Positions 3,937 to 63,550 of a stretch of DNA of 64,000 nt are shown piece after piece. Numbering within the stretch: the stretch's first letter is position 1; the number at the start of each line of letters is the position of its first letter. Both the position numbers and the translations under genes were made by a program. The stretch is from Nitrospirota bacterium (lineage in GTDB: Bacteria > Nitrospirota > Nitrospiria > JACQBZ01). The notes under the pieces are model-generated. The model had not been told where the DNA came from. It saw nothing but the letters and a program-made list of their open reading frames with translations, and ran no database searches. The DNA is taken from NCBI GenBank assembly GCA_016201865.1, contig JACQCA010000081.1:9546-73545 (forward strand), given 5' to 3'.

Positions 3937-3975
3937 AAAGGCCCGCATTCTCTTCAGAGAATGCGGGCCTTATCT
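3937..3975 (-). terminator. Intrinsic terminator downstream of the rhodanese gene
   Basis: Perfect 16-bp arms AAGGCCCGCATTCTCT-TCAG-AGAGAATGCGGGCCTT, followed on the minus strand by a U-rich tract (TTTCGTTTG). Confidence 0.6.
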
Positions 3976-7802: not shown

Positions 7803-7833
7803 GGCTCTTTAGGGGGAACAGATTTCAAATCTG
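7803..7833. repeat. Family A palindromic element (imperfect copy) filling the intercistronic spacer
   Basis: GGGGGAACAGATTTCAAATCTGTCCTCTCCC. The whole 47-bp gap between the LpoB-like stop (7844) and the next gene's start (7796) is this hairpin. Confidence 0.7.
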
Positions 7834-7843
7834 TCCTCTCCCA

Positions 7844-12863: not shown

Positions 12864-13369
12864 ATAAAACGAAGACGCGTCGCGCTCACCGTGAAGGAAC
12901 CGCCGACCAGGTCTTCATCAGCCGTTCACCGGAGGAGACGCGCGCGCACGGGGAAGCGATCGGGCGACTCCTGACCGGCGGCGAGCTGATCGCTCTGGAG
13001 GGCCCTCTCGGAACCGGGAAGACCCATCTGGTGCAGGGGCTGGCCCGCGGCCTCGGAATCACGGATCTTCCGATCACCAGTCCCACCTTCGTGTTCGTGC
13101 ATGAATTCCGAGGCCGCCGACCGCTCGCCCATGTGGACCTGTTTCGGATCGAGCGCGCGGAAGATCTGCCGGAACTCGGCATATTGGAATATCTTGACAG
13201 CCCATGGGTGGTTGCGATTGAATGGGCCGACAAGGCCGGACAGCTTCTGCCGGCCGAACGTCTGACGGTCCGGTTGGCCAACCAAGGCGAGACGATTCGG
13301 AGGATAGAGATCGAGGCAAGCGGCCCGCGGTATCAAACCTTATTAGAGGCTCTTGTAAAAAAGAAATGA
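12860..13369 (+). CDS. tsaE: tRNA t6A37 biosynthesis ATPase TsaE
   Basis: LEGPLGTGKTHLVQGLARGLG and PTFVFVHEF. 4-nt overlap with nnr. Confidence 0.85.
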   Translation: MNKTKTRRAHREGTADQVFISRSPEETRAHGEAIGRLLTGGELIALEGPLGTGKTHLVQGLARGLGITDLPITSPTFVFVHEFRGRRPLAHVDLFRIERAEDLPELGILEYLDSPWVVAIEWADKAGQLLPAERLTVRLANQGETIRRIEIEASGPRYQTLLEALVKKK

Positions 13370-14124
13370 GCGCCGCGAAGGAATCCGCAAAAATTATTCT
13401 GGACAACCTTCGAGCCTATATCCAGATGTACCGGGAATGGGGATTCGAAGGAGTGTCGGTGAAATGGCCAGTTCAGGACGACGTAGGGGCACGGCGCGCC
13501 GTGCCCCTACCAACAACCGTGCAGCCCACCGTACATTCGAATGCTGACGACCTGACCGCCCTTCGCGATGAGATCGGCGACTGCATGCGATGCAAGCTTT
13601 CTTCCGGTCGGACCCATCTCGTGTTCGGGACGGGCGATTCGGAGGCCGATCTGATGTTCATCGGTGAAGCGCCGGGCGAGGATGAAGACCGTCAGGGAAA
13701 ACCCTTTGTAGGCAAGGCCGGGCAGCTCCTCACCCGCATCATCGAGGCGATGGGACTCAAACGCGAGGAGGTCTATATCGCCAATATCATCAAATGCCGC
13801 CCGCCCGGAAACCGGAATCCGGAGCCGGATGAGATCGCAACCTGTTCCCCTTTCATCCAACGGCAAATCGAGATCCTGCGGCCCAAAGTGATCTGTGCGC
13901 TCGGAACCTTCGCGGCCCAGACCCTTCTGGGCACGGGACAGAAAATCTCCCAGCTCCGCGGACGATTTCATAATCTGCCGATCCTATTCTCCGACGGCTC
14001 ACCGGCCGGGATCAAAGTCATGCCGACCTTCCATCCGGCTTATCTTCTGAGAAACCCGGACGACAAAAAACGGGTCTGGGGCGATATGCAATTGATTATG
14101 CGTGAATTACGGAGTGACCGATGA
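13366..14124 (+). CDS. udg: Uracil-DNA glycosylase, family 4
   Basis: GEAPGEDEDRQGKPFVGKAGQLL and CMRCKL. ATGA overlap with tsaE. The track ORF at 13222 is an in-frame artefactual extension. Confidence 0.85.
   Translation: MSAAKESAKIILDNLRAYIQMYREWGFEGVSVKWPVQDDVGARRAVPLPTTVQPTVHSNADDLTALRDEIGDCMRCKLSSGRTHLVFGTGDSEADLMFIGEAPGEDEDRQGKPFVGKAGQLLTRIIEAMGLKREEVYIANIIKCRPPGNRNPEPDEIATCSPFIQRQIEILRPKVICALGTFAAQTLLGTGQKISQLRGRFHNLPILFSDGSPAGIKVMPTFHPAYLLRNPDDKKRVWGDMQLIMRELRSDR
13483..13508. repeat. Family B palindromic element inserted in-frame in the udg N-terminal region
   Basis: TAGGGGCACGGCGCGCCGTGCCCCTA. It is translated as DVGARRAVPLP and is a near-copy of the intergenic element at 23563. 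Confidence 0.6.
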
Positions 14125-14986: not shown

Positions 14987-15067
14987 CGAGCGAGTTCTAC
15001 AGTCGCACATAAAGCTTGACGGATTCATACCATATAGTAGAAAATCCTGCCAAAGAGAAATGAGCAC

Positions 15068-15412
15068 TTGGGGAAAACCATGCAGGGCAATGATACAGCC
15101 AAAAGTGTCATCAGACGCATCGTTGACCGGATCGGCAAAGAATATCGGCCTGAACGGATTATTCTCTTCGGATCGTATGCATACGGAGAACCCGACCGGG
15201 ACAGCGACATTGATCTATTGATCATCAAGAGCACACCGGACCGGCCGATTGATCGCCGCGTCAAGGTAAGGCAGATTGTGTCGGATCCCCAGCGACTGAT
15301 CCCATTTGAGCCGCTGGTCCTCACGCCGAAAGAATTGAAGCGACGGTTGGATATCGGCGACCAATTCATACAGGAAATTTTGAATAAGGGCGAAGTTCTC
15401 TATGCCGCGTGA
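15068..15412 (+). CDS. Minimal nucleotidyltransferase (MNT-type antitoxin, Pol-beta superfamily)
   Basis: RIILFGSYAYGEPDRDSDIDLLII. Lower GC than the flanks. Confidence 0.85.
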   Translation: MGKTMQGNDTAKSVIRRIVDRIGKEYRPERIILFGSYAYGEPDRDSDIDLLIIKSTPDRPIDRRVKVRQIVSDPQRLIPFEPLVLTPKELKRRLDIGDQFIQEILNKGEVLYAA

Positions 15413-15475
15413 GGAATCCCGTTATCCAGACGATTGGTTCAGGGTTGGCCGGAAAGAACTCAGAGGATAAACAAC

Positions 15476-16915
15476 ATGCAACTTGACCCATTGCCGCTGC
15501 CAGCAGTGCAAGACAGTCCGGCGGCTTCGTCCGCGCTTCGAAAAGTCGACAAGCTGAATCGCGCAGCGGAGCGACGTTGGAAAGACAAGCTGATTATTGA
15601 AACTGCGCTTTCTCGATCGCTGGTGAGTTTCCAAGCCAACAAAGGCAGAGCAGTCTATCGCTGGTTCAAATATAAGGAAGCATTCTCCGCCGAAATGGTG
15701 GAGTATTTCCTGAACCGCTACAAGATTTCTAAAGGTGTCCTGATCGATCCATTCGCCGGAAGCGGCACGGCGCTTTTTGCGGCCGGTGCTTTCGGAATGA
15801 AGGCCGAGGGCATTGAGTTGTTGCCCATCGGGCAGACGGTCATTGCAACCAAGCAGCTTATTGATTGGGAAATTCGGCAGCAAGATGTAGAGCGTGTGGC
15901 TTTGTGGCTACAAGAGCAGCCTTGGAAGAATCATGCCGTTGTGAAACCGATCAACGAACTCCGGATTACTCGCGGCGCATATCCAAAAGAAACGGTTGTG
16001 GCAATGGGCAGATTTCTCGGTGCTTCCGAGCAAGAAAGCCAACATGTCAAGACCGTTCTACTTTTCGCGCTTCTCTGCGTCCTCGAATCCATCAGCTACA
16101 CCAGAAAAGATGGGCAGTACCTCCGTTGGGACTATCGCTCCGGTAGGCGGATAGGAAAGAAAGTTTTCGACAAGGGCGAGATTCTATCGTTCGATAAAGC
16201 CATTACCATGAAATTGCAGGAGATCGTTACTGACCTTCGTTCCGCAGAAATGCCTGAAGACTTGTTTAAACCGCTTCGAGCGCGCACTGAAATTGCCCTG
16301 CATTCAGGTTCATGTCTCAACATTTTGCCGCAACTTGCGGCTGGCACCTACGATTGTCTAATTACTTCACCGCCCTATTGTAATCGCTATGACTACACGC
16401 GGACTTACGCGCTTGAGCTTGCATTGCTCGGAGTAGATGAAGAAGGCCTGCTTAAACTCAGGCAGGAAATGCTCAGTTGCACCGTTGAAAACAGAGCCAA
16501 GGACCTCTTGGCAATGAATCCGAATTGGAAATCTGCGATTGAGTCGGCTGACCGACATAAGCTGCTTCAATCCATTCTTGAATATCTTGAATCAGAGAAG
16601 GAACTCGACCTCTTAAATAACGACGGCATCCCACGAATGGTTCGGGGATACTTCTATGAGATGGCCTGTGTCATTGCTGAGTGTGCTCGCATTTTGAAGC
16701 CTGGAGCCCCGCTTATTATGGTGAATGACAATGTCCGATACCAAGGCGCAAGTGTATCGGTGGACATCATTCTCACAGAGATTGCGGAGCGCCTGGGCTT
16801 TACCGCAGAACAGATTCTCGTCTTGCCGAACGGAAAGGGAAACAGCAGCCAACAAATGGGCGCGCACGGCCGGGAGCCGCTAAGGAAATGTGTCTATGTC
16901 TGGCGGAAGGCCTGA
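15476..16915 (+). CDS. SAM-dependent amino-methyltransferase, probably a DNA N4-cytosine or N6-adenine methyltransferase; paralogue 1
   Basis: Motif I LIDPFAGSGTALFAA sits ~200 aa before motif IV LITSPPYCNRYDYTRTY, which is alpha-class order. RBS GAGGA precedes ATG 15476. ~52% GC. Confidence 0.6.
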   Translation: MQLDPLPLPAVQDSPAASSALRKVDKLNRAAERRWKDKLIIETALSRSLVSFQANKGRAVYRWFKYKEAFSAEMVEYFLNRYKISKGVLIDPFAGSGTALFAAGAFGMKAEGIELLPIGQTVIATKQLIDWEIRQQDVERVALWLQEQPWKNHAVVKPINELRITRGAYPKETVVAMGRFLGASEQESQHVKTVLLFALLCVLESISYTRKDGQYLRWDYRSGRRIGKKVFDKGEILSFDKAITMKLQEIVTDLRSAEMPEDLFKPLRARTEIALHSGSCLNILPQLAAGTYDCLITSPPYCNRYDYTRTYALELALLGVDEEGLLKLRQEMLSCTVENRAKDLLAMNPNWKSAIESADRHKLLQSILEYLESEKELDLLNNDGIPRMVRGYFYEMACVIAECARILKPGAPLIMVNDNVRYQGASVSVDIILTEIAERLGFTAEQILVLPNGKGNSSQQMGAHGREPLRKCVYVWRKA

Positions 16916-17162
16916 GCGAATGGCGAAGCCCTATCGTCAGCATCTGAAGTCCGGCAAGGATTTAGAAACCACCTATGAAGCTATTCGAGCGGGGTTTGTT
17001 ACGGGGTGTATTTTGATTGGGGACCGGATTCGAAAACTTATCACTCGCATGTGGACGTATACTCAATTCCAGATTTGCCAGAGCACATCTAACTCGCGCT
17101 GGAGCGACCGCATTTAGCAGGCGGCTTAGCTTAGCGGTTGGTTCTAATGATGAGAGAATGAA

Positions 17163-18458
17163 ATGAAGACGCAATTAACCTTCTTTAGTGAGGCAGAAGC
17201 TCCCACCGCGAACTTGAAAGCCTCGCGCTCCGGAACCTTCCTCGATAATATGTCTCTCCCCATTCATCGTTGGTTCCGATACTCCGCGGGTTTTTCAGCG
17301 CAATGGGTTGAGCGGGTTCTTGATGATTGGCAAATTGATTCTCGTCACATTGTGCTTGATCCCTTTGCTGGATCGGGCACCGTGTCCGTTGTGTGCGACA
17401 CACGAGGGATAAGAAGCATCGGCATTGAAGCCCATCCTGTTGTTGCCCGGGCATGCAAAGCAAAACTGAGTTGGGCAACCTTAATTGAGCGATTTTCCGC
17501 TTTTGCGGAACAGACCGTTAAGTCGGCTAAGCTCTCCCCGGCGGCTTTGTCACAATACCCCAGCCTGATACAGCGCAGCTTTGATCCGGATTCGCTCGCC
17601 GTCTTGGACTCGCTCAAAACCGCTTGGTTCTCCCTTAATGATGAATCACACGAATCCGAACTCGTCTGGCTCGCAATAACGGCCGTTTTGCGCGCCTGCT
17701 CGAAAGCAGGCACTGCCCAATGGCAATATATTCTGCCTAATAAATCAAAAGCGAACGTCGCTTTCCCCGACATAGCATTTCGCCGGCAGATTGAAATGAT
17801 GAAACTAGATATGCGATGGATGCAGAACCGGGTCAAAGAATCACTTGGAGAAGTGATTTCAACCGATGCAAGGCATTGTTCAGACTCCATCACCCACAAA
17901 GTCGACGCAGTCATCACCTCTCCTCCCTATGCAAACAACTATGATTATGCCGATGCGTTGCGCTTTGAAATGACCTTCTGGGGTGAGGTTAACGGATGGG
18001 GTGATATTCACGACAAAGTAAGGAAGTACCTCATGGTATCGTCATCCCAACATTCATCCCATGACAAGCTTGATGCGGAATCCTTGCTTTCACTGTCTAT
18101 GGTCGAGCCGATTCGGAAGGAACTGACGTCCGTCGTTCATGAGTTGTCGCGCGTCCGAGAAATGCATGGAGGCAAGAAAAATTACCATACGATGGTGGCG
18201 GCATACTGCCGGGATATTTCATTGGTGTTGCATCAACTCCGTCGGGTTTGCAGGAAAGGTGCGAAGATGTGCTGGGTCATTGGTGATTCAGCCCCTTATG
18301 GAGTGTATTGCCCGATTGAAAAATGGATCGGCGAACTCGCCCTTGCCGCCGGCTTTGACAGCTATACTTTCAAGAAGCTCAGAGATAGAAATATCAAATG
18401 GAAAAACAGAAAACATCGAGTTCCACTGAAGGAAGGACTCCTTTGGATTGAGGGTTAA
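17163..18458 (+). CDS. SAM-dependent amino-methyltransferase, paralogue 2
   Basis: VLDPFAGSGTVSVV ... VITSPPYANNYDYADA. It shares the N-terminal box HRWFRYSAGFS with paralogue 1 (YRWFKYKEAFS). Confidence 0.6.
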   Translation: MKTQLTFFSEAEAPTANLKASRSGTFLDNMSLPIHRWFRYSAGFSAQWVERVLDDWQIDSRHIVLDPFAGSGTVSVVCDTRGIRSIGIEAHPVVARACKAKLSWATLIERFSAFAEQTVKSAKLSPAALSQYPSLIQRSFDPDSLAVLDSLKTAWFSLNDESHESELVWLAITAVLRACSKAGTAQWQYILPNKSKANVAFPDIAFRRQIEMMKLDMRWMQNRVKESLGEVISTDARHCSDSITHKVDAVITSPPYANNYDYADALRFEMTFWGEVNGWGDIHDKVRKYLMVSSSQHSSHDKLDAESLLSLSMVEPIRKELTSVVHELSRVREMHGGKKNYHTMVAAYCRDISLVLHQLRRVCRKGAKMCWVIGDSAPYGVYCPIEKWIGELALAAGFDSYTFKKLRDRNIKWKNRKHRVPLKEGLLWIEG

Positions 18459-18460
18459 TC

Positions 18461-19321
18461 ATGGCGGAATCACTGGCGCATACGTTTGGGCAGATTATCG
18501 GCAACGTTCTTGAAGAGGCTGTCGAACCGGCACTCAGGAAGTTCGCCGGTGATCACGGCTTACTCTTGGACAAAAAGGGACACAGGAATGCGCGAAAAGG
18601 AAAGAAAGTCACATGGACAGACATCTATGGTAATTCTCACGACTTGGATTTCGTCCTTGAGCGTGGCGGCACGGAAAAGACCATCGGGACACCTGTTGCG
18701 TTTATTGAAACAGCATGGAGAAGATACACGAAGCACTCCCGAAACAAAGCACAGGAGATACAGGGCGCAATTCAAGCGCTGGCGCTTACGCACAAATACA
18801 GTCATCCGTTTATAGGCACCATTTTGGCCGGGGTCTTCACTGATGGCGCATTGACGCAGTTGAAGTCCTTGGGATTCCACGTTTTGTACTTTCCTTACAA
18901 ATCCATCCTCACGGCTTTCAAATCGGTGGGCGTTGATGCAGACTTCAACGAGAACACACCGGAAAAAGAGTTCCGCCGCAAACTCAGACAATGGAAATCA
19001 ATAAGCAAGAAAATAAAACGTAGTATTGCGAAATGCCTCATTGATTTGCACAAGGCCGACATTCAAGCCTTTTTTGACGCACTCGAAAAGAGCATCGCAC
19101 GGAAGATAGCCAAGATCACCATCATTCCATTGCATGGCCGGGAATCTGAACACCGGACGGTTGAAACAGCCATTGAATTCCTGACATCATATAAAGCAAC
19201 CAATATGGAAGCAGGCGTTTATAAGTTCGAGATTTACATCCGCTACTCAAATGGTGATCGAATTACCGCTGAGTTCACTGATAAAAACGCCGCTGTGGAG
19301 TTCCTGAACAAATACATGTGA
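18461..19321 (+). CDS. Hypothetical protein, candidate PD-(D/E)xK restriction endonuclease
   Basis: Its ATG lies 2 nt after the methyltransferase-2 stop. Length 286 aa. Possible nuclease core HDLDFVLE...AFIETAW. AT-rich codon usage. Confidence 0.35.
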   Translation: MAESLAHTFGQIIGNVLEEAVEPALRKFAGDHGLLLDKKGHRNARKGKKVTWTDIYGNSHDLDFVLERGGTEKTIGTPVAFIETAWRRYTKHSRNKAQEIQGAIQALALTHKYSHPFIGTILAGVFTDGALTQLKSLGFHVLYFPYKSILTAFKSVGVDADFNENTPEKEFRRKLRQWKSISKKIKRSIAKCLIDLHKADIQAFFDALEKSIARKIAKITIIPLHGRESEHRTVETAIEFLTSYKATNMEAGVYKFEIYIRYSNGDRITAEFTDKNAAVEFLNKYM

Positions 19322-19399: not shown

Positions 19400-22156
19400 A
19401 TGTCCGATCTCACCCCCCTCATGAAACAGTATACGGAGATCAAACAGCGTCATAAGGACGCGATTCTGTTTTTCCGCGTGGGCGATTTCTATGAGATGTT
19501 CTTCGAGGACGCCGTGATCGCCTCGAAGATTCTCGAGATCGCGCTGACCTCGCGCGACAAATCGAAGGAAGACGCGGTGCCGCTCTGCGGCATCCCCTAT
19601 CACGCCGCCTCGACCTACATCGCCAAACTGATTCGGGCCGGGAAGAGCGTCGCGATCTGCGATCAGGTCGAGGATCCCGCCTTGGCCAAGGGTCTTGTCC
19701 GCCGCGAAGTCGTCCGGGTCATCACGCCGGGCACGCTGATCGAACCGGAGCTTCTTTCCGCCGACCAAAACAACTACCTTGCCTCGGTGGCCCTCTCCAA
19801 GGCAGGCTGCGGGCTGGCGTTTGTTGATCTGTCGACGGGAGAGTTCAACCTGACCCAGTTCGACGGCGCCGCGGCCCAAGAAGAACTTCTATCCGAACTG
19901 TCCCGATTGGATCCCAAAGAGATCCTTCTGGCCGAATCTGAGCTGGCGCGCTTTGAGACTTCGCTGAACGATCAGACAACCGCGCAGATATCTTCAATGC
20001 GACTCTGCCGGTTTACGGACACCGCCTTTGATCCCGGATTGGCTCGTCAAGCGCTGCTGGATCATTTTCAACTTCAGTCCCTGGCCGGTTTCGGTTGCGA
20101 AGAGATCCCGATGGCCGTCGCGGCCGCCGGCGCATTGTTGCGCTATCTCCAAGAGACCCAGCTCACGGCCCTGGGACATTTAAACCGAATCAAACCATAC
20201 CGGCGCGCGGACCATCTCATACTGGATTCGATCACGCAACGGAATCTGGAGTTGACCCGGCGTCTGATGGACGGCCGTCCGGAAGGCTCGTTGCTCTGGA
20301 CGCTGGACCGGACCCTCACGCCGATGGGCGCGCGGCTCCTCCGGAACTGGCTGCTTCAGCCGCTGCTGGACATCCCGGCCATTCGGGCGCGGCAGTCCGC
20401 GATCGAAGCCTTCTGGGTCGAGACGATGCATCGGACGCGTCTTCGTTCAATCTTCAAGGGCATCGCAGACCTGGAACGGCTCATCGGACGGATCTCGCTC
20501 GGCACGGCCAACGCCCGCGACCTCATTCAACTCAAAAATTCGATCGCGCAGCTTCCGTCCGTCTACAAATGTCTGGCGGAACAGCCGGACAGAATTTACA
20601 TCGGGGGGGGACAGATTTCAAATCTGTCCCCAGCCACTCCCCAGCCAGTACTGGAATCCATCCGCGCCGGATGGGACGATCTCACCGATATCCAGTCCCG
20701 AATCCAACAGACTCTGGTGGACGATCCGCCGCCGGGGCTGCGCGACGGCGGACTGATCCGGGACGGTATTGACCCGACGCTGGACGAGCTGAAAGACATC
20801 GCCCGCGATGGAAAACGCTGGCTCTCAGCCCTGGAAGCGAAAGAGCGGGAACGGACCGGGATCGAATCGCTCAAGGTGCGTTACAACCAGGTGTTTGGAT
20901 ACTACATCGAGGTGACGAAGACCCATCTCTCGCGCGTGCCGACGGATTACCACCGCAAACAGACGCTTGTGAATGCCGAGCGGTTCATCACGCCCGAGTT
21001 AAAAGAACTGGAAACCAAGGTGCTCGGCGCGGAAGAACACCGCCGGGGGCTTGAGTACGAAATCTTCGAACGGCTTCGTAAGGAGGTCGCGGATTCCACT
21101 CCCCGGGTTCAGGCGATGGCGCGGTCGGTCGCTCTCTTAGATGTCTTATCCACGCTGGCCGAGGTTGCGGCGACGGAGCATTATGTCAGGCCCGAGGTCC
21201 ATGACGGCGATGAGATCCGGATCGTCGACGGCCGCCATCCGATGTTGGAGCGAATGCTGCCGAGAGGGGCCCGGTTCATCCCGAACGATGCCATCATAGA
21301 TCGGCAAGACAACCGATTGCTGATCATCACCGGACCCAACATGGCCGGCAAGTCCACCTATATGCGACAGGTCGCGTTGATCGTGATTCTGGCCCAGATC
21401 GGCGGCTTCGTGCCGGCCGCCGAAGCCCGAATCGGGATGGTGGACCGGATCTTCACGCGGATCGGGGCCTCGGATGATCTGATGGGCGGGCAGAGCACCT
21501 TCATGGTCGAGATGACCGAAACGGCCGCCCTCCTTCATCAGGCCACCGGCCGGAGTCTGATCCTGTTGGACGAGATCGGACGCGGGACGAGCACCTTCGA
21601 CGGCGTCAGCATCGCCTGGGCCGTGGCCGAATACCTTCACGACACGACCCGATCCGGCGCGCGGACGCTCTTCGCCACCCATTATCATCAGCTCACCGAA
21701 TTGGCTTTGACTTTTCCCGGAATAAAGAATTACAATATCGCCGTTCGCGAATGGAACGACGAGATCATCTTTCTTCGGAAGATCGTGGCGGGCGGGACCG
21801 ATCGGAGTTACGGCATCCAGGTGGCCCGACTGGCCGGTCTGCCTCATGAGGTCATCGGCCGAGCGAAGGAAATCTTGGCCAACCTGGAAAGCGGAGAACT
21901 CAACGAGTTCGGCCAACCCCGGTTGGCTTCGAGTCCCGATTCACCGTCGGCCGCTACGGATGCCGCGCAGCTCGATCTCTTAACCGGGAGGGGACCGATT
22001 TCCAATCCGTCCCCGGCCGACAGGCATCCCGTCATCAAAGAAATTTTGCAGGAACTCCGGGAAATGGATCTTGACCGTCTCACGCCGCTGGAGGCGATCA
22101 ACCGCCTCCATGAACTGAGGAAGAAGGCCGAGGGGGCGTCCGAAGGGGCCTCCTAA
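19400..22156 (+). CDS. mutS: DNA mismatch repair protein MutS
   Basis: MSDLTPLMKQYTEIKQRH, the Walker A motif GPNMAGKSTYMRQ and DEIGRGTSTFDG. The start was set at MSDL (RBS AAGGAA). Confidence 0.95.
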   Translation: MSDLTPLMKQYTEIKQRHKDAILFFRVGDFYEMFFEDAVIASKILEIALTSRDKSKEDAVPLCGIPYHAASTYIAKLIRAGKSVAICDQVEDPALAKGLVRREVVRVITPGTLIEPELLSADQNNYLASVALSKAGCGLAFVDLSTGEFNLTQFDGAAAQEELLSELSRLDPKEILLAESELARFETSLNDQTTAQISSMRLCRFTDTAFDPGLARQALLDHFQLQSLAGFGCEEIPMAVAAAGALLRYLQETQLTALGHLNRIKPYRRADHLILDSITQRNLELTRRLMDGRPEGSLLWTLDRTLTPMGARLLRNWLLQPLLDIPAIRARQSAIEAFWVETMHRTRLRSIFKGIADLERLIGRISLGTANARDLIQLKNSIAQLPSVYKCLAEQPDRIYIGGGQISNLSPATPQPVLESIRAGWDDLTDIQSRIQQTLVDDPPPGLRDGGLIRDGIDPTLDELKDIARDGKRWLSALEAKERERTGIESLKVRYNQVFGYYIEVTKTHLSRVPTDYHRKQTLVNAERFITPELKELETKVLGAEEHRRGLEYEIFERLRKEVADSTPRVQAMARSVALLDVLSTLAEVAATEHYVRPEVHDGDEIRIVDGRHPMLERMLPRGARFIPNDAIIDRQDNRLLIITGPNMAGKSTYMRQVALIVILAQIGGFVPAAEARIGMVDRIFTRIGASDDLMGGQSTFMVEMTETAALLHQATGRSLILLDEIGRGTSTFDGVSIAWAVAEYLHDTTRSGARTLFATHYHQLTELALTFPGIKNYNIAVREWNDEIIFLRKIVAGGTDRSYGIQVARLAGLPHEVIGRAKEILANLESGELNEFGQPRLASSPDSPSAATDAAQLDLLTGRGPISNPSPADRHPVIKEILQELREMDLDRLTPLEAINRLHELRKKAEGASEGAS
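20603..20631. repeat. Family A palindromic element, a perfect copy inserted in-frame in mutS
   Basis: GGGGGGGGACAGATTTCAAATCTGTCCCC. A 12-bp stem with a 1-nt loop. It is translated as GGGQISNLSP. Confidence 0.75.
21990..22014. repeat. Family A palindromic element, a diverged copy in-frame in the mutS C-terminal linker
   Basis: GGGGACCGATTTCCAATCCGTCCCC. Three substitutions relative to the perfect copy. It is translated as RGPISNPSP. Confidence 0.65.
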
Positions 22157-22173: not shown

Positions 22174-23550
22174 ATGCCGTTGAAAAAACATACCGTTAAA
22201 CTGGCCATTATCGGCGGGGGACACGGAGGACGAGCGCTCCTGGACCTGTTGTACGATGACCCCACCGTCGAGATCGTCGGCATCGCCGATCTCAATCCCA
22301 AGGCCCCGGGCATGACGCTGGCAAGACGATTGAAGATCCCGCGCACCACCGACTACCGAAAGCTTTTGCAATCGAACGACATTGAACTCATCATGGACGT
22401 GACCGGCAATCTAAAAGTCCGAAGGGAGCTGGCCCAGACCGCCCCTAAGGCCGAGGTCATCGGGGGGCACAGCGCCCGCTTCATGTGGGAAATGATCGAG
22501 GCCCGGATCAAAAGCCGAAATGAGATCGAACGGCTGTTGCTGGAATACCAATCCCTCTATGATCTCGGGTTAAAACTCACGGCCAGCGAGAATCCGGAAA
22601 AACTCTACAACACGATCGTGGACTACGCCACCAGTCTCACGAATACGCCGGCCGGCAGCCTTACCATTTTTGAGGAAAAAAAGGGCGAGATGTTCCTCGC
22701 CGCCGTCAAGGGAGTTTCCCTGCAGTTTTCAAAGCAGACGCGATGGAAGGTCCGACAGGGCGGGCTCACCAGCCACATCCTCAATCAGGATGAACCGCTG
22801 GCGATCCAGGACGTCCGACACTACGAGAGATTCGACAACCCGATCATGCTGCGCGAAGGCATTCGTTCCCTGATCGCCTCGCCGCTGAAGACCGAAGGGA
22901 GGATCGTGGGCATCCTGTATGTCGACGACTTCAGGCCGCGTCCGTATACCGCCCGCGAGATCTCTCTTCTGTCGCTCCTGTCCACCTTCGCCGCCATGGC
23001 GATCGAAAAGACCAAGCTGCTCGAAAGCACCCGGATCCTGGCGATCACGGATGAGCTGACCGGTCTGTACAACCACCGCCACTTCCGGCAACAATTGAAT
23101 CTGGAGATCAGCCGGGCGGAGCGATACCGTCGGTCGCTCTCCCTCATGATGATCGATATCGACTATTTCAAACAGTACAACGACACCAACGGCCACCTGA
23201 AGGGCAACGAGGTGTTGAAGGATGTGGGACGGCTCTTAAGAACGATGAGCCGGGAGGTGGACATCGTCGCCCGCTACGGCGGCGAAGAATTCGCGATCAT
23301 CATGCCGGAGACGGAGCGTCGCAAGGCGCGGGCCTTTTCCGAACGACTGCGGAAGAAAATCGCCGACCACCCCTTCGAGAATGCCCGCAAGCAGCCGAAC
23401 AAAAAACTCACCGTCAGCATCGGCGCGGCCGCCTATCCCGAAAACGCGTCCACGGCCTTTGATCTCATCGAACAGGCCGATCGGGCGCTCTATGAGGCCA
23501 AGCGGTCTGGCCGAAACCTCGTTTGCGTTTCCAACCGGAAAGTAAAATAA
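22174..23550 (+). CDS. Diguanylate cyclase (GGDEF) with an N-terminal Rossmann-like domain and a GAF domain
   Basis: N-terminal LAIIGGGHGG, and RYGGEEFAIIMPET. Confidence 0.85.
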   Translation: MPLKKHTVKLAIIGGGHGGRALLDLLYDDPTVEIVGIADLNPKAPGMTLARRLKIPRTTDYRKLLQSNDIELIMDVTGNLKVRRELAQTAPKAEVIGGHSARFMWEMIEARIKSRNEIERLLLEYQSLYDLGLKLTASENPEKLYNTIVDYATSLTNTPAGSLTIFEEKKGEMFLAAVKGVSLQFSKQTRWKVRQGGLTSHILNQDEPLAIQDVRHYERFDNPIMLREGIRSLIASPLKTEGRIVGILYVDDFRPRPYTAREISLLSLLSTFAAMAIEKTKLLESTRILAITDELTGLYNHRHFRQQLNLEISRAERYRRSLSLMMIDIDYFKQYNDTNGHLKGNEVLKDVGRLLRTMSREVDIVARYGGEEFAIIMPETERRKARAFSERLRKKIADHPFENARKQPNKKLTVSIGAAAYPENASTAFDLIEQADRALYEAKRSGRNLVCVSNRKVK

Positions 23551-23562
23551 CCCAACGCACAT

Positions 23563-23590
23563 AGGGGCGCGGCGCGCCGCGCCCCTATGG
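23563..23590. terminator. Family B palindrome acting as a bidirectional terminator between convergent genes
   Basis: ATAGGGGCGCGGCGCGCCGCGCCCCTAT. A perfect palindrome. Confidence 0.6.
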
Positions 23591-23619: not shown

Positions 23620-24846
23620 TCAATTCAAGAGGCGTTCAAATCGCGCGGCCTCCGAACCCACCGGACCGAGAATAGTCAGGGAAAGGTTTCTCGCATCGAG
23701 GAGCTGCTCGCTCAACCGCCGGACCTGCCGTTCTGAAACCTTGTTGATCTCGCTGAGCGTCTCCTCCAGCGTGAAGAACCGCCCGAAATAGATCTCGTCC
23801 CGTGCAAGCCGGCTCATCCGGCTGTTCGTGCTCTCCAGACCGAGCAGGATGCCGCCTTTCATCTGATTCACGGCCCGTCTCAATTCATCGGTCCGGATCC
23901 CGCGGTTGCGCAGTTTTCGAAGCTCCATGAGCGTCAGGTCAAGAACCTGCCGGACGGCTCTTGGAGCGGAAGCGGCATACACCGTCAGCATCCCGGCGTC
24001 TTTGAAGCCGGCGAAATGAGAATAGATCGAATAGACCAGTCCCCGTTTCTCGCGGACCTCCTGAAACAGCCGCGAGCTCATCCCCCCGCCCAGCAGCGTG
24101 TTCAAGGCATACATGCCATACCGGTCGCGATGGGTCAGCGGGAGTCCCGGAAGCCCCAGACAGAGATGCGCCTGTTCGAGTTTTTTGCGACGGATCACGA
24201 GACGACCGTCGGCCACCGGCGATGGAGGACGCCCGTACGATTCCCGCTCGGCGGTGCGGCCGAACGTGCGGAACGCCCGATTCAACTGCCGGATCAGCGC
24301 AGACCGATTAAATCGTCCGGCCACCGAAATGACGATGCGATCGGGAAGGTATTTTCGATTCAAATAGTCCAGAATTTTTCGTTGGGAAATCGCCCGGATG
24401 ATCTTGACTTCGCCCAGGATCGGTCGGCCGATCGGGTTCCCGCGCCAGACATTTGCGGTATGGAGGTCGTGGACCAGGTCTTCGGGATCGTCCTCGACCA
24501 TCTTGATCTCTTCCAGGACGACCTTCTTTTCACGCTCGATCTCGACGGGGCTGAAGCGGGAATGGCGGAAGAGGTCCGACAGGAGATCCACCGCCTGAGG
24601 AAGATGTTCGTCAACCACCTTGGCGTAGAAGGCCGTGGTCTCGCGCGAGGTGAAGGCGTTGAGCTCGCCGCCCAGGCCGTCCATCTCCTGCGCGATCTGT
24701 TGGGCCGACCGGCGGGCCGTGCCCTTGAAGAACATATGCTCGACAAAGTGGGAAAGCCCGGCCTCGGCATCCGTCTCGTCGCGCGACCCGACCTCGACCC
24801 AGATCCCAAGCGAGGCCGACTTCACGAACGGGATCTCTTCCATCAC
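23620..24846 (-). CDS. M16-family zinc peptidase (insulinase-like)
   Basis: HxxEH zinc motif SHFVEHMFFKGT. The conserved N-terminal residues LDNGIRVV are encoded in-frame upstream of the first canonical start. The true 5' end may lie near 24903. Confidence 0.8.
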   Translation of the reverse strand: MMEEIPFVKSASLGIWVEVGSRDETDAEAGLSHFVEHMFFKGTARRSAQQIAQEMDGLGGELNAFTSRETTAFYAKVVDEHLPQAVDLLSDLFRHSRFSPVEIEREKKVVLEEIKMVEDDPEDLVHDLHTANVWRGNPIGRPILGEVKIIRAISQRKILDYLNRKYLPDRIVISVAGRFNRSALIRQLNRAFRTFGRTAERESYGRPPSPVADGRLVIRRKKLEQAHLCLGLPGLPLTHRDRYGMYALNTLLGGGMSSRLFQEVREKRGLVYSIYSHFAGFKDAGMLTVYAASAPRAVRQVLDLTLMELRKLRNRGIRTDELRRAVNQMKGGILLGLESTNSRMSRLARDEIYFGRFFTLEETLSEINKVSERQVRRLSEQLLDARNLSLTILGPVGSEAARFERLLN

Positions 24847-27020: not shown

Positions 27021-27042
27021 TAATGCCCCCTTTTTTCTGGAG

Positions 27043-27090
27043 GGGACAGATTTGAAATCCGTCCCCCGTTCGTAGATTTGAAATTTCAAA
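27043..27090. repeat. Family A palindromic element plus an adjacent half-copy in the rpsO-pnp leader
   Basis: GGGGACAGATTTGAAATCCGTCCCC, then AGATTTGAAATTTCAAA. On the minus (coding) strand the hairpin sits immediately 5' of the pnp SD. Confidence 0.7.
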
Positions 27091-52421: not shown

Positions 52422-52561
52422 TAGAGCGGTTTATTATAACGCAAGGTTTTCTATCTGTAAAGGCAGGAAACCTTCTCTACAAATCATGGTGACAGTCGCC
52501 TAAATACAAAAGGGGGTGACGTCTGTCACCCCCTTTGCTGTTGAAGATTGGACGGTGTTGC

Positions 52562-56499: not shown

Positions 56500-56573
56500 G
56501 TTAGATCTCCTGTGGGCAAGATTTGGGGGCCGGGTTTAAAACCGGCCCCCAGGATTTGTAATGAGGTTGGCGA

Positions 56574-63386: not shown

Positions 63387-63464
63387 TGGTGTCCCCAAGG
63401 GGATTCGAACCCCTGTTACCGCCGTGAAAGGGCGATGTCCTAGGCCGGGCTAGACGATGGGGAC
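63387..63464 (-). tRNA. tRNA-Glu (UUC)
   Basis: Anticodon arm CGCCCUUUCACGGCG matches E. coli tRNA-Glu. T-arm GGGGUUCGAAUCCCC. Ends in CCA. Confidence 0.85.
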
Positions 63465-63474
63465 GCAAAATAAA

Positions 63475-63550
63475 TGGTGAGCCGCCCGGGATTCGAACCC
63501 GGGACACCCGCCTTAAAAGGGCGGTGCTCTACCAGCTGAGCTAGCGGCTC
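63475..63550 (-). tRNA. tRNA-Lys (UUU)
   Basis: GAGCCGCUAGCUCAGCUGGUAGAGC...CCGCC-CUUUUAA-GGCGG...GGUUCGAAUCC...CCA. Confidence 0.85.

Follow-up and report, generated by a model that had tools for sequence, protein, structure and literature searches.

Two perfect palindromes in a Nitrospirota locus

The stretch of Nitrospirota DNA analyzed here (64 kb, called the window) carries two perfect palindromes with GC-rich stems of 12 to 13 bp, neither of which has a strand. The one referred to as REP copy 1 (13483..13510) is the 28-nt sequence GTAGGGGCACGGCGCGCCGTGCCCCTAC, which bears a "double foot," GTAG at the 5' end and CTAC at the 3' end, and folds into a 12-bp stem with a GCGC loop; its inner 26-mer, TAGGGGCACGGCGCGCCGTGCCCCTA, occupies 13484-13509. 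It lies in a gene on the plus strand (13366..14124; Pfam PF03167, 8.3e-41) encoding a family-4 uracil-DNA glycosylase (UDG), whose PF03167 core spans residues 87-240 and whose ATG overlaps the stop codon of tsaE (ATGA). REP copy 2 (23560..23589) is the 30-nt palindrome CATAGGGGCGCGGCGCGCCGCGCCCCTATG, with an inner 28-mer, ATAGGGGCGCGGCGCGCCGCGCCCCTAT, at 23561-23588. Its foot is degenerate, ATAG...CTAT, and its inner pair is G:C, not A:T. Two convergent genes enclose it, a GAF-GGDEF diguanylate cyclase gene on the plus strand (22174..23550; Pfam GGDEF, 5.8e-51, and GAF, 1.8e-16) and an M16 peptidase gene on the minus strand (23620..24846; Peptidase_M16, 2e-46, and M16_C, 6.4e-42). Within the 69-nt spacer that separates the GGDEF stop (23550) from the M16 stop (23620), copy 2 begins 9 nt past the former and ends 30 nt from the latter.

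Within the 26-mer the copies differ at one mirrored pair (A..T versus G..C), and both therefore remain perfect palindromes. A search with the degenerate 26-mer, allowing up to 3 mismatches, returned only these two sites in 64 kb and no match in 100 dinucleotide shuffles. Both copies form stable hairpins as single-stranded DNA (ssDNA) and as RNA, with at most 1 of 200 shuffles as stable. The free energy of copy 1 is -25.9/-27.5 kcal/mol as RNA in a 48-nt context and -14.9 as ssDNA, a stability matched by none of 200 shuffles; copy 2 reaches -34.3 (plus strand) and -39.2 (minus strand) kcal/mol as RNA in an 81-nt context and -17.9 kcal/mol as ssDNA (38-nt segment). No partner palindrome of a REPIN/BIME doublet was found within 100 nt of either copy, and both are singlets. 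Rfam 15, run over the whole window, brought only two tRNAs to the gathering threshold and placed no family at either palindrome. With two copies in 64 kb, one within a gene and the other outside, the palindromes are sparser than classical REPs. The first-pass annotation had described both palindromes as members of one sequence family, which is supported here; its sequences were correct, and its positions were displaced by 1 to 2 nt (13483-13508 instead of 13484-13509 for TAGGGGCACGGCGCGCCGTGCCCCTA and 23563-23590 instead of 23561-23588 for ATAGGGGCGCGGCGCGCCGCGCCCCTAT).

Copy 1 is translated within a hypervariable linker of UDG

Copy 1 makes up codons 40-48 of the UDG gene and reads in frame as VGARRAVPL (DVGARRAVPLP with its flanks). 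They fall in a hypervariable linker, with a conserved N-terminal segment before it and the Cys motif and UDG core after it. An alignment of 33 UDG sequences has a conserved core and a linker that differs in both length and sequence, and across 120 homologues the linker length ranges from 6 to 113 aa. Orthologues share residues upstream of the palindrome (G26 without exception, Y22 in 90% or more of the aligned sequences), and the stretch from the palindrome to the Cys motif is free of start codons, indicating that copy 1 is translated. The earlier description of DVGARRAVPLP as a coding insert in the UDG frame thus stands, and the flexible linker appears to accommodate the in-frame palindrome without harm. 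The form of this protein annotated by NCBI (P0001) has 232 aa, as against the start at 13366 used here.

The palindrome family is spread over many phyla

At least 120 genome stretches, drawn from more than 15 phyla, contain the same 26- to 28-mer. Among the 125 listed cross-phylum matches with both flanking bases, 114 are flanked by G...C (that is, GTAG...CTAC), 118 have complementary bases at the free inner pair, and 1 shows the ATAG/CTAT foot combination of copy 2. Stem and feet are conserved in the listed matches, while the centre varies, CATG being the commonest loop (43 matches) and CGCG accounting for 21. The 28-mer of copy 1 recurs unchanged in 21 of the 126 cross-phylum matches listed, and identical 28-mers come from Nitrospirota, Desulfobulbaceae, Chloroflexota, Acidobacteriota, other phyla, and phage-like contigs. 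The sequences flanking the listed matches are unrelated to each other. Most of these matches are extragenic: the open frame that covers them has a median length of 327 nt, whereas random positions give 1112 nt. In several cases a single locus or MAG has 2 to 4 copies. The palindrome is present in independent assemblies produced by different assemblers and in isolate genomes. It is also found on fifteen viral contigs, and the identical 28-mer on several IMG/VR contigs; none of the fifteen contains an intact RAYT. Phages are a possible vehicle for the palindrome. Literature searches by DNA string returned only primer coincidences, and those by the peptide strings GARHAVPL and GTACRAPT returned nothing relevant.

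A RAYT transposase recurs at the palindromes

Clustering of the 1299 ORFs near 126 listed palindromes yielded only one recurrent family at the palindromes themselves, a Y1 transposase (median distance of 0) at 4 of 120 listed loci. A large sensor-type protein and an ABC ATPase form two clusters of slightly greater size; these are 800 to 1300 nt away and look incidental. The transposase scores 29 bits against PF01797 (cutoff of 23) and 61 bits against NF047646, "REP-associated tyrosine transposase," the latter falling short of the cutoff of 80 since an insert breaks the match in two; its sole PDB match is 4ER8, TnpA_REP. At one locus (L103), palindromes flank the RAYT gene on both sides and a further one lies within it, and at six others (L017, L052, L091, L149, L151, and L152) the palindrome is inside the RAYT gene. 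The RAYT genes of L151 and L152 hold a 28-mer identical to copy 1, which recurs 900 nt away, and in L151 the TAG of a foot provides a stop codon.

Nearly all of the best 120 RAYT homologues encode the palindrome directly after the HUH motif, read in either open frame as VGARHAVPL or RGTACRAPT, in a search whose profile itself contained the palindrome peptide. When the search was repeated with P0173, a RAYT without the palindrome, against 1.84 billion representatives, the family peptide was found in 17 of the 150 best matches, and in many of the rest that loop was filled by different GTAGGGGC...GCCCCTAC-type peptides. A Nitrospira sp. MAG supplies one palindrome-bearing homologue, whose DNA has a CATG-centred copy. 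The RAYTs found here measure 187 to 204 aa and share the motifs PNHVHGI, VWQRNYYEH, and YI(L/M/R)(N/D)N(P/T), the final P being present in two of the three aligned sequences. The association between family and transposase is seen in other genomes; tblastn with RAYTs gave no match in the 64-kb window or in its syntenic loci.

History of the palindrome at the UDG site

The first-pass annotation had raised the question of whether the UDG segment is conserved among orthologues, and the answer is divided. The closest orthologues, at 82 to 84% protein identity, have the identical palindrome at this site (L127 and L130). Two other relatives, L122 and L125, have different perfect palindromes there, built from other self-complementary stems; between the window, L127, and L130 on one side and L122 on the other, 4 of 7 inner positions per arm differ, and both palindromes are perfect. 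The site is decayed in L121 and L132 and occupied by unrelated sequence in L131. No palindrome was found at the site in L148, whose protein is 82% identical, and it is missing in all of the more distant orthologues. The segment is thus conserved among the closest relatives, variable or decayed in others, and absent at greater distance. The linker of the relatives has also gathered other repeat-derived peptides. By these comparisons, the UDG copy is old and has been inherited at one site within a Nitrospirota clade while its stem changes.

The stem variants VGATHASPL, VGAIHELPL, and VGAQHAAPL also occur in the RAYT loops of unrelated bacteria. The same "alleles" in such loops indicate that the variant stems at the UDG site are members of mobile families.

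Alternative explanations of the palindromes

Copy 2 had been taken for a bidirectional terminator, and in the broadest form of that explanation the family would be mainly a terminator hairpin, with a bidirectional intrinsic terminator at 23.56 kb and a stray copy in UDG. It shares with such terminators a symmetric GC-rich hairpin between two convergent stop codons, and the hairpin just downstream of both is very stable; E. coli REPs are reported (summarized in PMC3733652 and PMC12306157) to affect mRNA stability and transcription attenuation. However, bidirectional intrinsic terminators need an upstream A-tract and a downstream T-tract, giving U-runs on both transcripts, and copy 2 has neither. 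Its 3' flanks, GGAAATCGTG on the plus strand and TGCGTTGGGT on the minus strand, contain no U-tract after the hairpin, and a terminator scan found no site at 23560-23589. The same convergent gene pair at six syntenic loci of four relatives (L121, L122, L124, L125, L126, and L131) is separated by only 5 to 31 nt, with no hairpin in the spacer, indicating that copy 2 is a lineage-specific insertion and not a conserved terminator. An efficient terminator is also hard to square with the presence of the same sequence within coding regions, including the RAYT gene in many genomes. Copy 2 is not a canonical intrinsic terminator, and a family made up mainly of terminators is highly improbable. What remains of the proposal that one family serves as terminator and as coding insert is the shared family and the coding insert.

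The UDG site itself invites another explanation, since perfect yet differing stems at one site could point to selection for the hairpin itself. The linker hairpin would then be a selected cis-element, acting in DNA or mRNA to regulate UDG, and the stems of the relatives would represent compensatory covariation, not REP turnover. Several relatives do carry fully complementary but different stems at exactly the same position, and the differences between the window, L127, and L130 and L122 look like structural covariation. Against this, the element is decayed, replaced, or missing in the remaining orthologues described above, including L148; its variants are the RAYT-loop alleles of unrelated bacteria and so belong to mobile families; and the same linker took up other repeat-derived peptides. 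We consider such a cis-element improbable. It is barely credible that the palindrome serves as a target for protein binding or restriction-modification, or that it is a product of chance or assembly. Its centre, GGCGCGCC, is an AscI-type 8-mer, a rare-cutter palindrome, and an ORF at 15434-16915 has an SPPY motif and may encode a DNA methyltransferase. Yet the window contains GGCGCGCC no more often than chance predicts (4 observed, 3.6 expected), and it is the centre that varies within the family, most often being CATG, whereas stem and feet are conserved; the AscI-type restriction site is ruled out on these grounds. The recurrence of the sequence in independent assemblies from different assemblers and in isolate genomes argues against an artefact, and the expectation of zero matches argues against chance.

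Relationship to known REP systems

Both palindromes are very probably long double-foot REPs of the family associated with TnpA_REP subclass 2.4/RAYT Group 4 HUH-Y1 transposases. As described by Quentin et al. (2018, PMC6006769), subclass 2.4 proteins have about 194 aa and the signatures NH[IFV]H, WQ, and YIxNNP, occur in Cyanobacteria, Bacteroidetes, and various phyla, and contain "long, double foot" REPs in frame within tnpAREP, a double foot being a 5' GT[AG]G with a complementary 3' C[TC]AC. The subclass corresponds to RAYT Group 4 of Bertels et al. (2017, PMC5581495), for which that study gives only about 14 flanking 16-mer occurrences per replicon. The family found here resembles subclass 2.4 REPs in its long GC-rich stem, GT[AG]G/C[TC]AC feet, scattered multiphylum distribution, and few copies per genome, and the 28-mer of copy 1 is identical to one within a subclass 2.4-type RAYT (L151/L152). 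It departs from them in the degenerate ATAG/CTAT feet of copy 2 and in the lack of a RAYT in the window. We know of no biochemical proof of transposition for subclass 2.4.

GTAG REPs were surveyed in Proteobacteria, Cyanobacteria, Chloroflexi, and the PVC group, and that survey reports REPs within ORFs, many of them replication/repair genes (Di Nocera et al. 2013, PMC3733652). The likeness extends to a short GTAG hairpin that is mostly extragenic, with a minority wholly inside ORFs, where it adds a few residues to linkers or loops; to repair-gene hosts, here UDG and also MutS, where a second palindrome family forms a 14-residue insert; and to a foot TAG that can act as a stop codon, here in L151 (PMC3733652). 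The available text of PMC3733652 does not mention Nitrospirota or the majority of the phyla with matches here, and what is added is an in-ORF copy retained orthologously, with an allelic series of stems. Double-foot REPs are known to insert into intergenic spacers as well as, in frame, into genes, so the picture implied by the first-pass annotation, in which a family peculiar to one genome has two functions, is not supported; the family is found across many phyla and belongs to a known REP class.

E. coli REP/BIME elements share with the window copies the GTAG guide tetranucleotide hairpin, an HUH-Y1 enzyme (TnpA_REP, PDB 4ER8), and an extragenic location, often after convergent or codirectional genes. 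They are imperfect, single-footed, present in hundreds of copies, and often paired as BIMEs/REPINs, whereas the window copies are perfect, double-footed singlets at low density, and the E. coli RAYT is of subclass 2.2/Group 2, in contrast to the subclass 2.4/Group 4 link here. The Rickettsia palindromic elements (RPEs) are a further parallel, as mobile palindromes in frame that add a peptide segment to a gene that still functions. Ogata et al. reportedly described RPEs in 2000 as in-frame coding palindromic repeats. Unlike the window element (28 nt, about 9 residues), RPEs have about 100 to 150 bp, encode 30 to 50 residues, and have no RAYT association. RPEs are CGTC-tagged according to Di Nocera et al. 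(2013, PMC3733652).

A possible course of events

The family's identity and distribution, its RAYT association elsewhere, and the in-frame position and history of the UDG copy are observed; by analogy, we infer that a RAYT moved the two window copies. As with E. coli TnpA_REP and IS200/IS605 TnpA, a RAYT would recognize a hairpin with a GTAG foot on ssDNA and would cut and rejoin it, scattering copies over the genome. Since the element is its own reverse complement and only one of its three frames contains a stop codon (TAG), an insertion that keeps the frame can survive in a tolerant loop. The UDG copy would be such a tolerated insertion, adding about 9 residues to a hypervariable linker and inherited in the Nitrospirota clade. 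Copy 2 would have been inserted later and in this lineage only, at a place typical of REPs, past the ends of two convergent genes.

We also infer whatever effects either copy has on RNA. For copy 2, an effect on mRNA 3' ends or translation is possible. In E. coli, REPs are reported to protect mRNA 3' ends and to stall ribosomes when less than 15 nt from the stop codon (Liang et al. 2015, as cited in PMC12306157). The copy 2 hairpin may incidentally protect mRNA 3' ends and, at 9 nt past the GGDEF stop and so inside the 15-nt range given there, may stall terminating ribosomes.

A more speculative extension, which we hold to be rather unlikely, is that the RAYT-embedded copy is a master copy that lets REPs cross phyla with their transposase, and that the UDG linker is a "landing pad" whose stems are overwritten by the variant of the resident RAYT. 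A master copy of this kind would explain the identical 28-mers across phyla and on phage-like contigs. The landing pad would record the successive REP alleles VGARRAVPL, VGATHASPL, VGAYGRTPL, VGAQHAAPL, and VGAIHELPL, each overwriting being perhaps the work of gene conversion between the shared GTAGGGGC/GCCCCTAC feet or of an exchange mediated by the RAYT. The pattern is seen in the sequences; the overwriting process is proposed.

Implications

Elements of this type have been published before, together with their link to a transposase and their in-frame insertion, and the window offers a good example of them, not a new system. For annotation, the 28-mers give rise to recurring peptides (VGARRAVPL, VGARHAVPL, and RGTACRAPT) in real proteins and spurious ORFs of many phyla, and such strings are REP insertions, to be told from conserved protein motifs or terminators. 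The window is a clear case of a REP tolerated in a DNA repair gene, with one site inherited and its stem changing. Together, the UDG copy and the RAYT-embedded copy provide a testable system for the spread and turnover of subclass 2.4/Group 4 RAYT-REPs, and the same system bears on whether in-ORF REPs of repair genes are neutral passengers or modulators.

Two palindromes of one family

The window carries two perfect, GC-rich palindromes: a 28-nt one at 13483-13510 (GTAGGGGCACGGCGCGCCGTGCCCCTAC, copy 1) in a uracil-DNA glycosylase (UDG) gene and a 30-nt one at 23560-23589 (CATAGGGGCGCGGCGCGCCGCGCCCCTATG, copy 2) between a GGDEF and an M16 peptidase gene. Both had been noticed in the first-pass annotation, with coordinates shifted by 1 to 2 nt, and its assignment of the two to a single family holds: their 26-mer cores differ only at one mirrored pair, A..T versus G..C, so that both stay perfect palindromes. 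They are the only matches in the window to a degenerate 26-mer allowing up to 3 mismatches, which had no match across 100 dinucleotide shuffles. Both hairpins are very stable, with RNA folding energies of -26 to -27.5 kcal/mol for copy 1 (48-nt context) and -34 to -39 kcal/mol for the 81-nt region around copy 2, and single-stranded DNA values of -14.9 and -17.9 kcal/mol, respectively.

No Rfam family lies at either site; the only Rfam matches in the window at the gathering threshold are two adjacent tRNA genes (63390-63464 and 63478-63550, minus strand). An AscI-type centre, GGCGCGCC, was rejected as an explanation, since it occurs at chance rate in the window and belongs to the variable part of the family, and an artefact is excluded by the presence of the palindrome in independent assemblies and isolate genomes. 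Three other long perfect or near-perfect palindromes, AAGGCCCGCATTCTCTTCAGAGAATGCGGGCCTT (3938-3971), AAAGGGGGTGACGTCTGTCACCCCCTTT (52509-52536), and TGGGGGCCGGGTTTAAAACCGGCCCCCA (56524-56551), are unrelated to this family or to the GGGGACAGATTTnAAATCTGTCCCC family described below and may be ordinary terminators.

Distribution across genomes

The family is not private to the source genome. Scanning one genome per GTDB species with the pattern TAGGGGCNCGG(N0-8)CCGNGCCCCTA found it in at least 120 genome stretches, and the matches listed include Acidobacteriota, Chloroflexota, Cyanobacteria, Planctomycetota, Nitrospirota, Desulfobacterota, Bacteroidota/Chlorobi, Gemmatimonadota, Poribacteria, Omnitrophota, Patescibacteria, Deinococcota, Firmicutes, and several other phyla. 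Their commonest centres are CATG (39 exact 26-mers) and the CGCG of the window (21). Both flanking bases are available for 125 of the listed matches; 114 of these have a G before and a C after, extending the palindrome to GTAG...CTAC, and in 118 the two unconstrained inner bases are complementary, the remaining 7 being transition intermediates. The listed sites are mainly extragenic, with a minority in long open frames (median covering frame of 327 nt versus 1112 nt at random positions), and their flanks are unrelated except in Nostoc, where one subfamily sits inside a larger repeat. In Nostocales/Chroococcales loci (L011, L018, L025-L027, L037, L040, L059, L071, L087, L101, and L109), the palindrome has a 4- to 5-nt centre (CATG, CACTG, CAATG, CATTG, or CAGTG) within a conserved ...cgtgaggtacacccg-REP-cacctcgtgatgtaatgttgtaccgcatctgaatgggaac unit, suggestive of a composite MITE-like element built around a REP, a small mobile hairpin repeat. 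The palindrome also occurs on 15 IMG/VR contigs, several with the identical 28-mer of copy 1; none of the 15 has an intact REP-associated tyrosine transposase (RAYT), and a phage route of spread is a possibility only.

Association with a REP-associated transposase

Clustering of 1299 ORFs near 126 listed palindromes revealed only one family recurrent at the palindromes themselves (median distance 0), a protein of ~190 aa found at 4 loci with the palindrome within its gene. It matches PF01797 (Y1_Tnp; 29 bits, cut-off 23) and NCBIfam NF047646, REP-associated tyrosine transposase (61 bits), and its only PDB match is 4ER8, the TnpA_REP of Escherichia coli. At a Chlorobiaceae locus (L103), palindromes lie on both sides of the RAYT gene and a third lies within it, a REPtron arrangement. 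A profile search recovered thousands of homologues with the same phylum spread, including a Nitrospira sp. MAG, and in nearly all of the best 120 the HUH motif is immediately followed by the encoded palindrome, read in one of two open frames as VGARHAVPL or RGTACRAPT; a few have RGTARRAPT, the CGCG variant of the window. This query itself contained the palindrome peptide, and the search was redone against 1.84 billion representatives with a homologue without it (P0173), giving 18,827 matches at E<=1e-10. The family's peptide occurs in 17 of the best 150, and many others of these have sister-palindrome peptides in the same loop (VGATHASPL, VGAIHELPL, VGAQHAAPL, VGAGLKPAPT, VGAKNFSPL, and RGKACLAPT).

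Among the RAYT genes themselves, that of a Nitrospira sp. (L149) contains a CATG-centred copy, and the RAYT on contigs L151 and L152, the latter sharing assembly ERZ26778537 with a Candidatus Electrothrix marina MAG contig, has an internal 28-mer identical to copy 1; L151 carries a second one 900 nt away. A double-foot REP (feet of the type 5' GT[AG]G and 3' C[TC]AC), GTAGGGACACGGCATGCCGTGTCCCTAC, overlaps the end of this gene (L151 10600-10627; L152 5750-5777), the TAG of its foot serving as the RAYT stop codon. Many toxin-antitoxin and RHS-repeat genes surround the RAYT gene on L151. Long tandem expansions are seen in the post-HUH loop of P0189 (Thermosynechococcus sp. NK55a RAYT, 311 aa), P0196, P0232, and P0390; these derive from the half-palindrome, e.g., more than 20 tandem copies of PPHGM or repeated AVPLPND, consistent with slippage at an intragenic hairpin.

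Copy 1 in the UDG gene

The family-4 UDG gene (13366-14124, plus strand; PF03167, 8e-41, core from residue 87) encodes copy 1 as VGARRAVPL. That copy 1 is a genuine in-frame coding insert, as the first-pass annotation had proposed, is borne out by conserved residues upstream of it and the lack of a start codon between it and the Cys motif. Syntenic relatives, recovered via UDG orthologues, share the gene order pdxJ-acpS-yjeF-tsaE-UDG-HIT-lapA-mutS-GGDEF/M16-pnp, and in DNA alignment most have a palindrome at exactly the same linker position. It is identical to that of the window in L127 and L130 (proteins 82 to 84% identical), perfect with a different stem in L122 (GTAGGGGCGACGCATGCGTCGCCCCTAC), and doubled in L125, where GTAGGGGCGTACGGCCGTACGCCCCTAC is followed by the L122 variant as two perfect palindromes 32 nt apart. 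It is decayed in L121 (GTACGGGCGCAGCATGCGTCGCCCCTAC) and L132 (GTAGGGACAATCCATGAATTGCCCCTAC), replaced by unrelated sequence in L131, and absent from L148 (protein 82% identical). In a set of 120 UDG homologues, only about the 20 closest have REP-like linker peptides, and the linker varies between 6 and 113 residues in length. By these sequence comparisons, the insert is old in this clade and turns over within a tolerant, hypervariable linker. The stems of the window and L122 differ at 4 of 7 inner positions per arm and are both still perfect, and the stem variants at this site are the same alleles as those in RAYT loops elsewhere, a pattern better explained by other family members having replaced or converted the site, or by correction of one arm from the other, than by independent point mutation. 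Other repeat-derived peptides have accumulated in the UDG linkers of P0007, P0012, P0013, and P0017 in alignment A1 (ASKASERGRLH..VEGATRAPT, VIASAAKQS..EIASS..RND, and GTDLKSVP, the last from the GGGGACAGATTT family); several palindromic repeat families thus colonise this linker.

Copy 2 and the terminator question

The GAF-GGDEF and M16 peptidase genes converge on a 69-nt spacer that contains copy 2, which begins 9 nt past the GGDEF stop and ends 30 nt from the M16 stop. Copy 2 had been taken for a bidirectional terminator, a canonical intrinsic form of which is unsupported: neither strand has a U-run 3' of the stem, a consensus terminator scan found none at copy 2, and the same palindrome sequence is read through inside genes, that of the RAYT included. 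Moreover, in four relatives (six syntenic loci) the spacer is 5 to 31 nt long and hairpin-free, so copy 2 is a lineage-specific insertion. In L122/L124, the 31-nt spacer (L122 15785-15815), AGGATCCTACCCAGCGAGCCCCTACAATCAT, directly follows the GTAG closing the GGDEF gene and holds CCTAC and GCCCCTAC motifs; it may be what is left of a decayed double-foot REP that once occupied this junction in a relative. By analogy with other REPs, protection of mRNA 3' ends by copy 2 is plausible, as is ribosome stalling at its distance of 9 nt from the GGDEF stop, an effect ascribed to REPs <=15 nt from a stop codon (Liang et al. 2015, cited in PMC12306157).

Other palindromes and neighbours

A second palindrome family, GGGGACAGATTTnAAATCTGTCCCC, lacks the GTAG foot and occurs at 7816-7836, 20607-20631, 21990-22014, and 27042-27066. 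In mutS, the copy at 20607-20631 is part of an in-frame insertion of 14 residues (DRIYIGGGQISNLS) missing from four syntenic relatives; palindromic inserts are therefore present in two DNA repair genes of the window, UDG and mutS. That at 21990-22014 is degenerate and falls in a C-terminal part of MutS that is variable. The rpsO-pnp leader region has the one at 27042-27066, which precedes the likely start of pnp (MTHQV...). A block of ~4.3 kb (about 15000-19300), with a GC content of about 50% versus about 60% in its flanks, separates the lapA-like gene from mutS; it includes a 114-aa ORF (15068-15412) and one of 493 aa (15434-16915) that has an SPPY motif and may encode a DNA methyltransferase. 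The block is missing from L121, L122, L125, and L131, where the lapA-like gene adjoins mutS, and L132 has an NTP_transf_2/HEPN pair at this junction, which therefore looks like an integration hotspot.

Placement in a published class

The RAYTs at the palindromes match the signatures of TnpA_Y1 subclass 2.4, defined by Quentin, Siguier, Chandler, and Fichant in 2018 (PMC6006769) and corresponding to RAYT Group 4 of Bertels: NH[IFV]H, WQ, and YIxNNP motifs, a median length of 194 aa, hosts among Cyanobacteria, Bacteroidetes, and various other phyla, and REPs described as "long, double foot", whose feet read GT[AG]G (5') and C[TC]AC (3') and which can lie in frame inside tnpA_REP. Group 4 is reported from 17 bacterial classes with few associated repeats per replicon, ~14 (Bertels et al. 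2017, PMC5581495), in agreement with the low palindrome density here. GTAG REP families common to distant organisms are known from Di Nocera et al. (2013, PMC3733652), who also report REPs wholly within ORFs, often those for replication or repair, and stop codons supplied by TAG feet. Given these matches, the window palindromes are members of a described class, and what the first-pass annotation saw as one family with a coding insert stands as a REP family rather than a terminator family. No RAYT was found in the 64-kb window; from the biochemistry of E. coli TnpA_REP and IS200/IS605, we infer that these REPs would be mobilised by subclass-2.4 enzymes. The allelic series at a single site in the UDG linker and the identity of the 28-mer across phyla extend the published descriptions of this class and do not depart from them.
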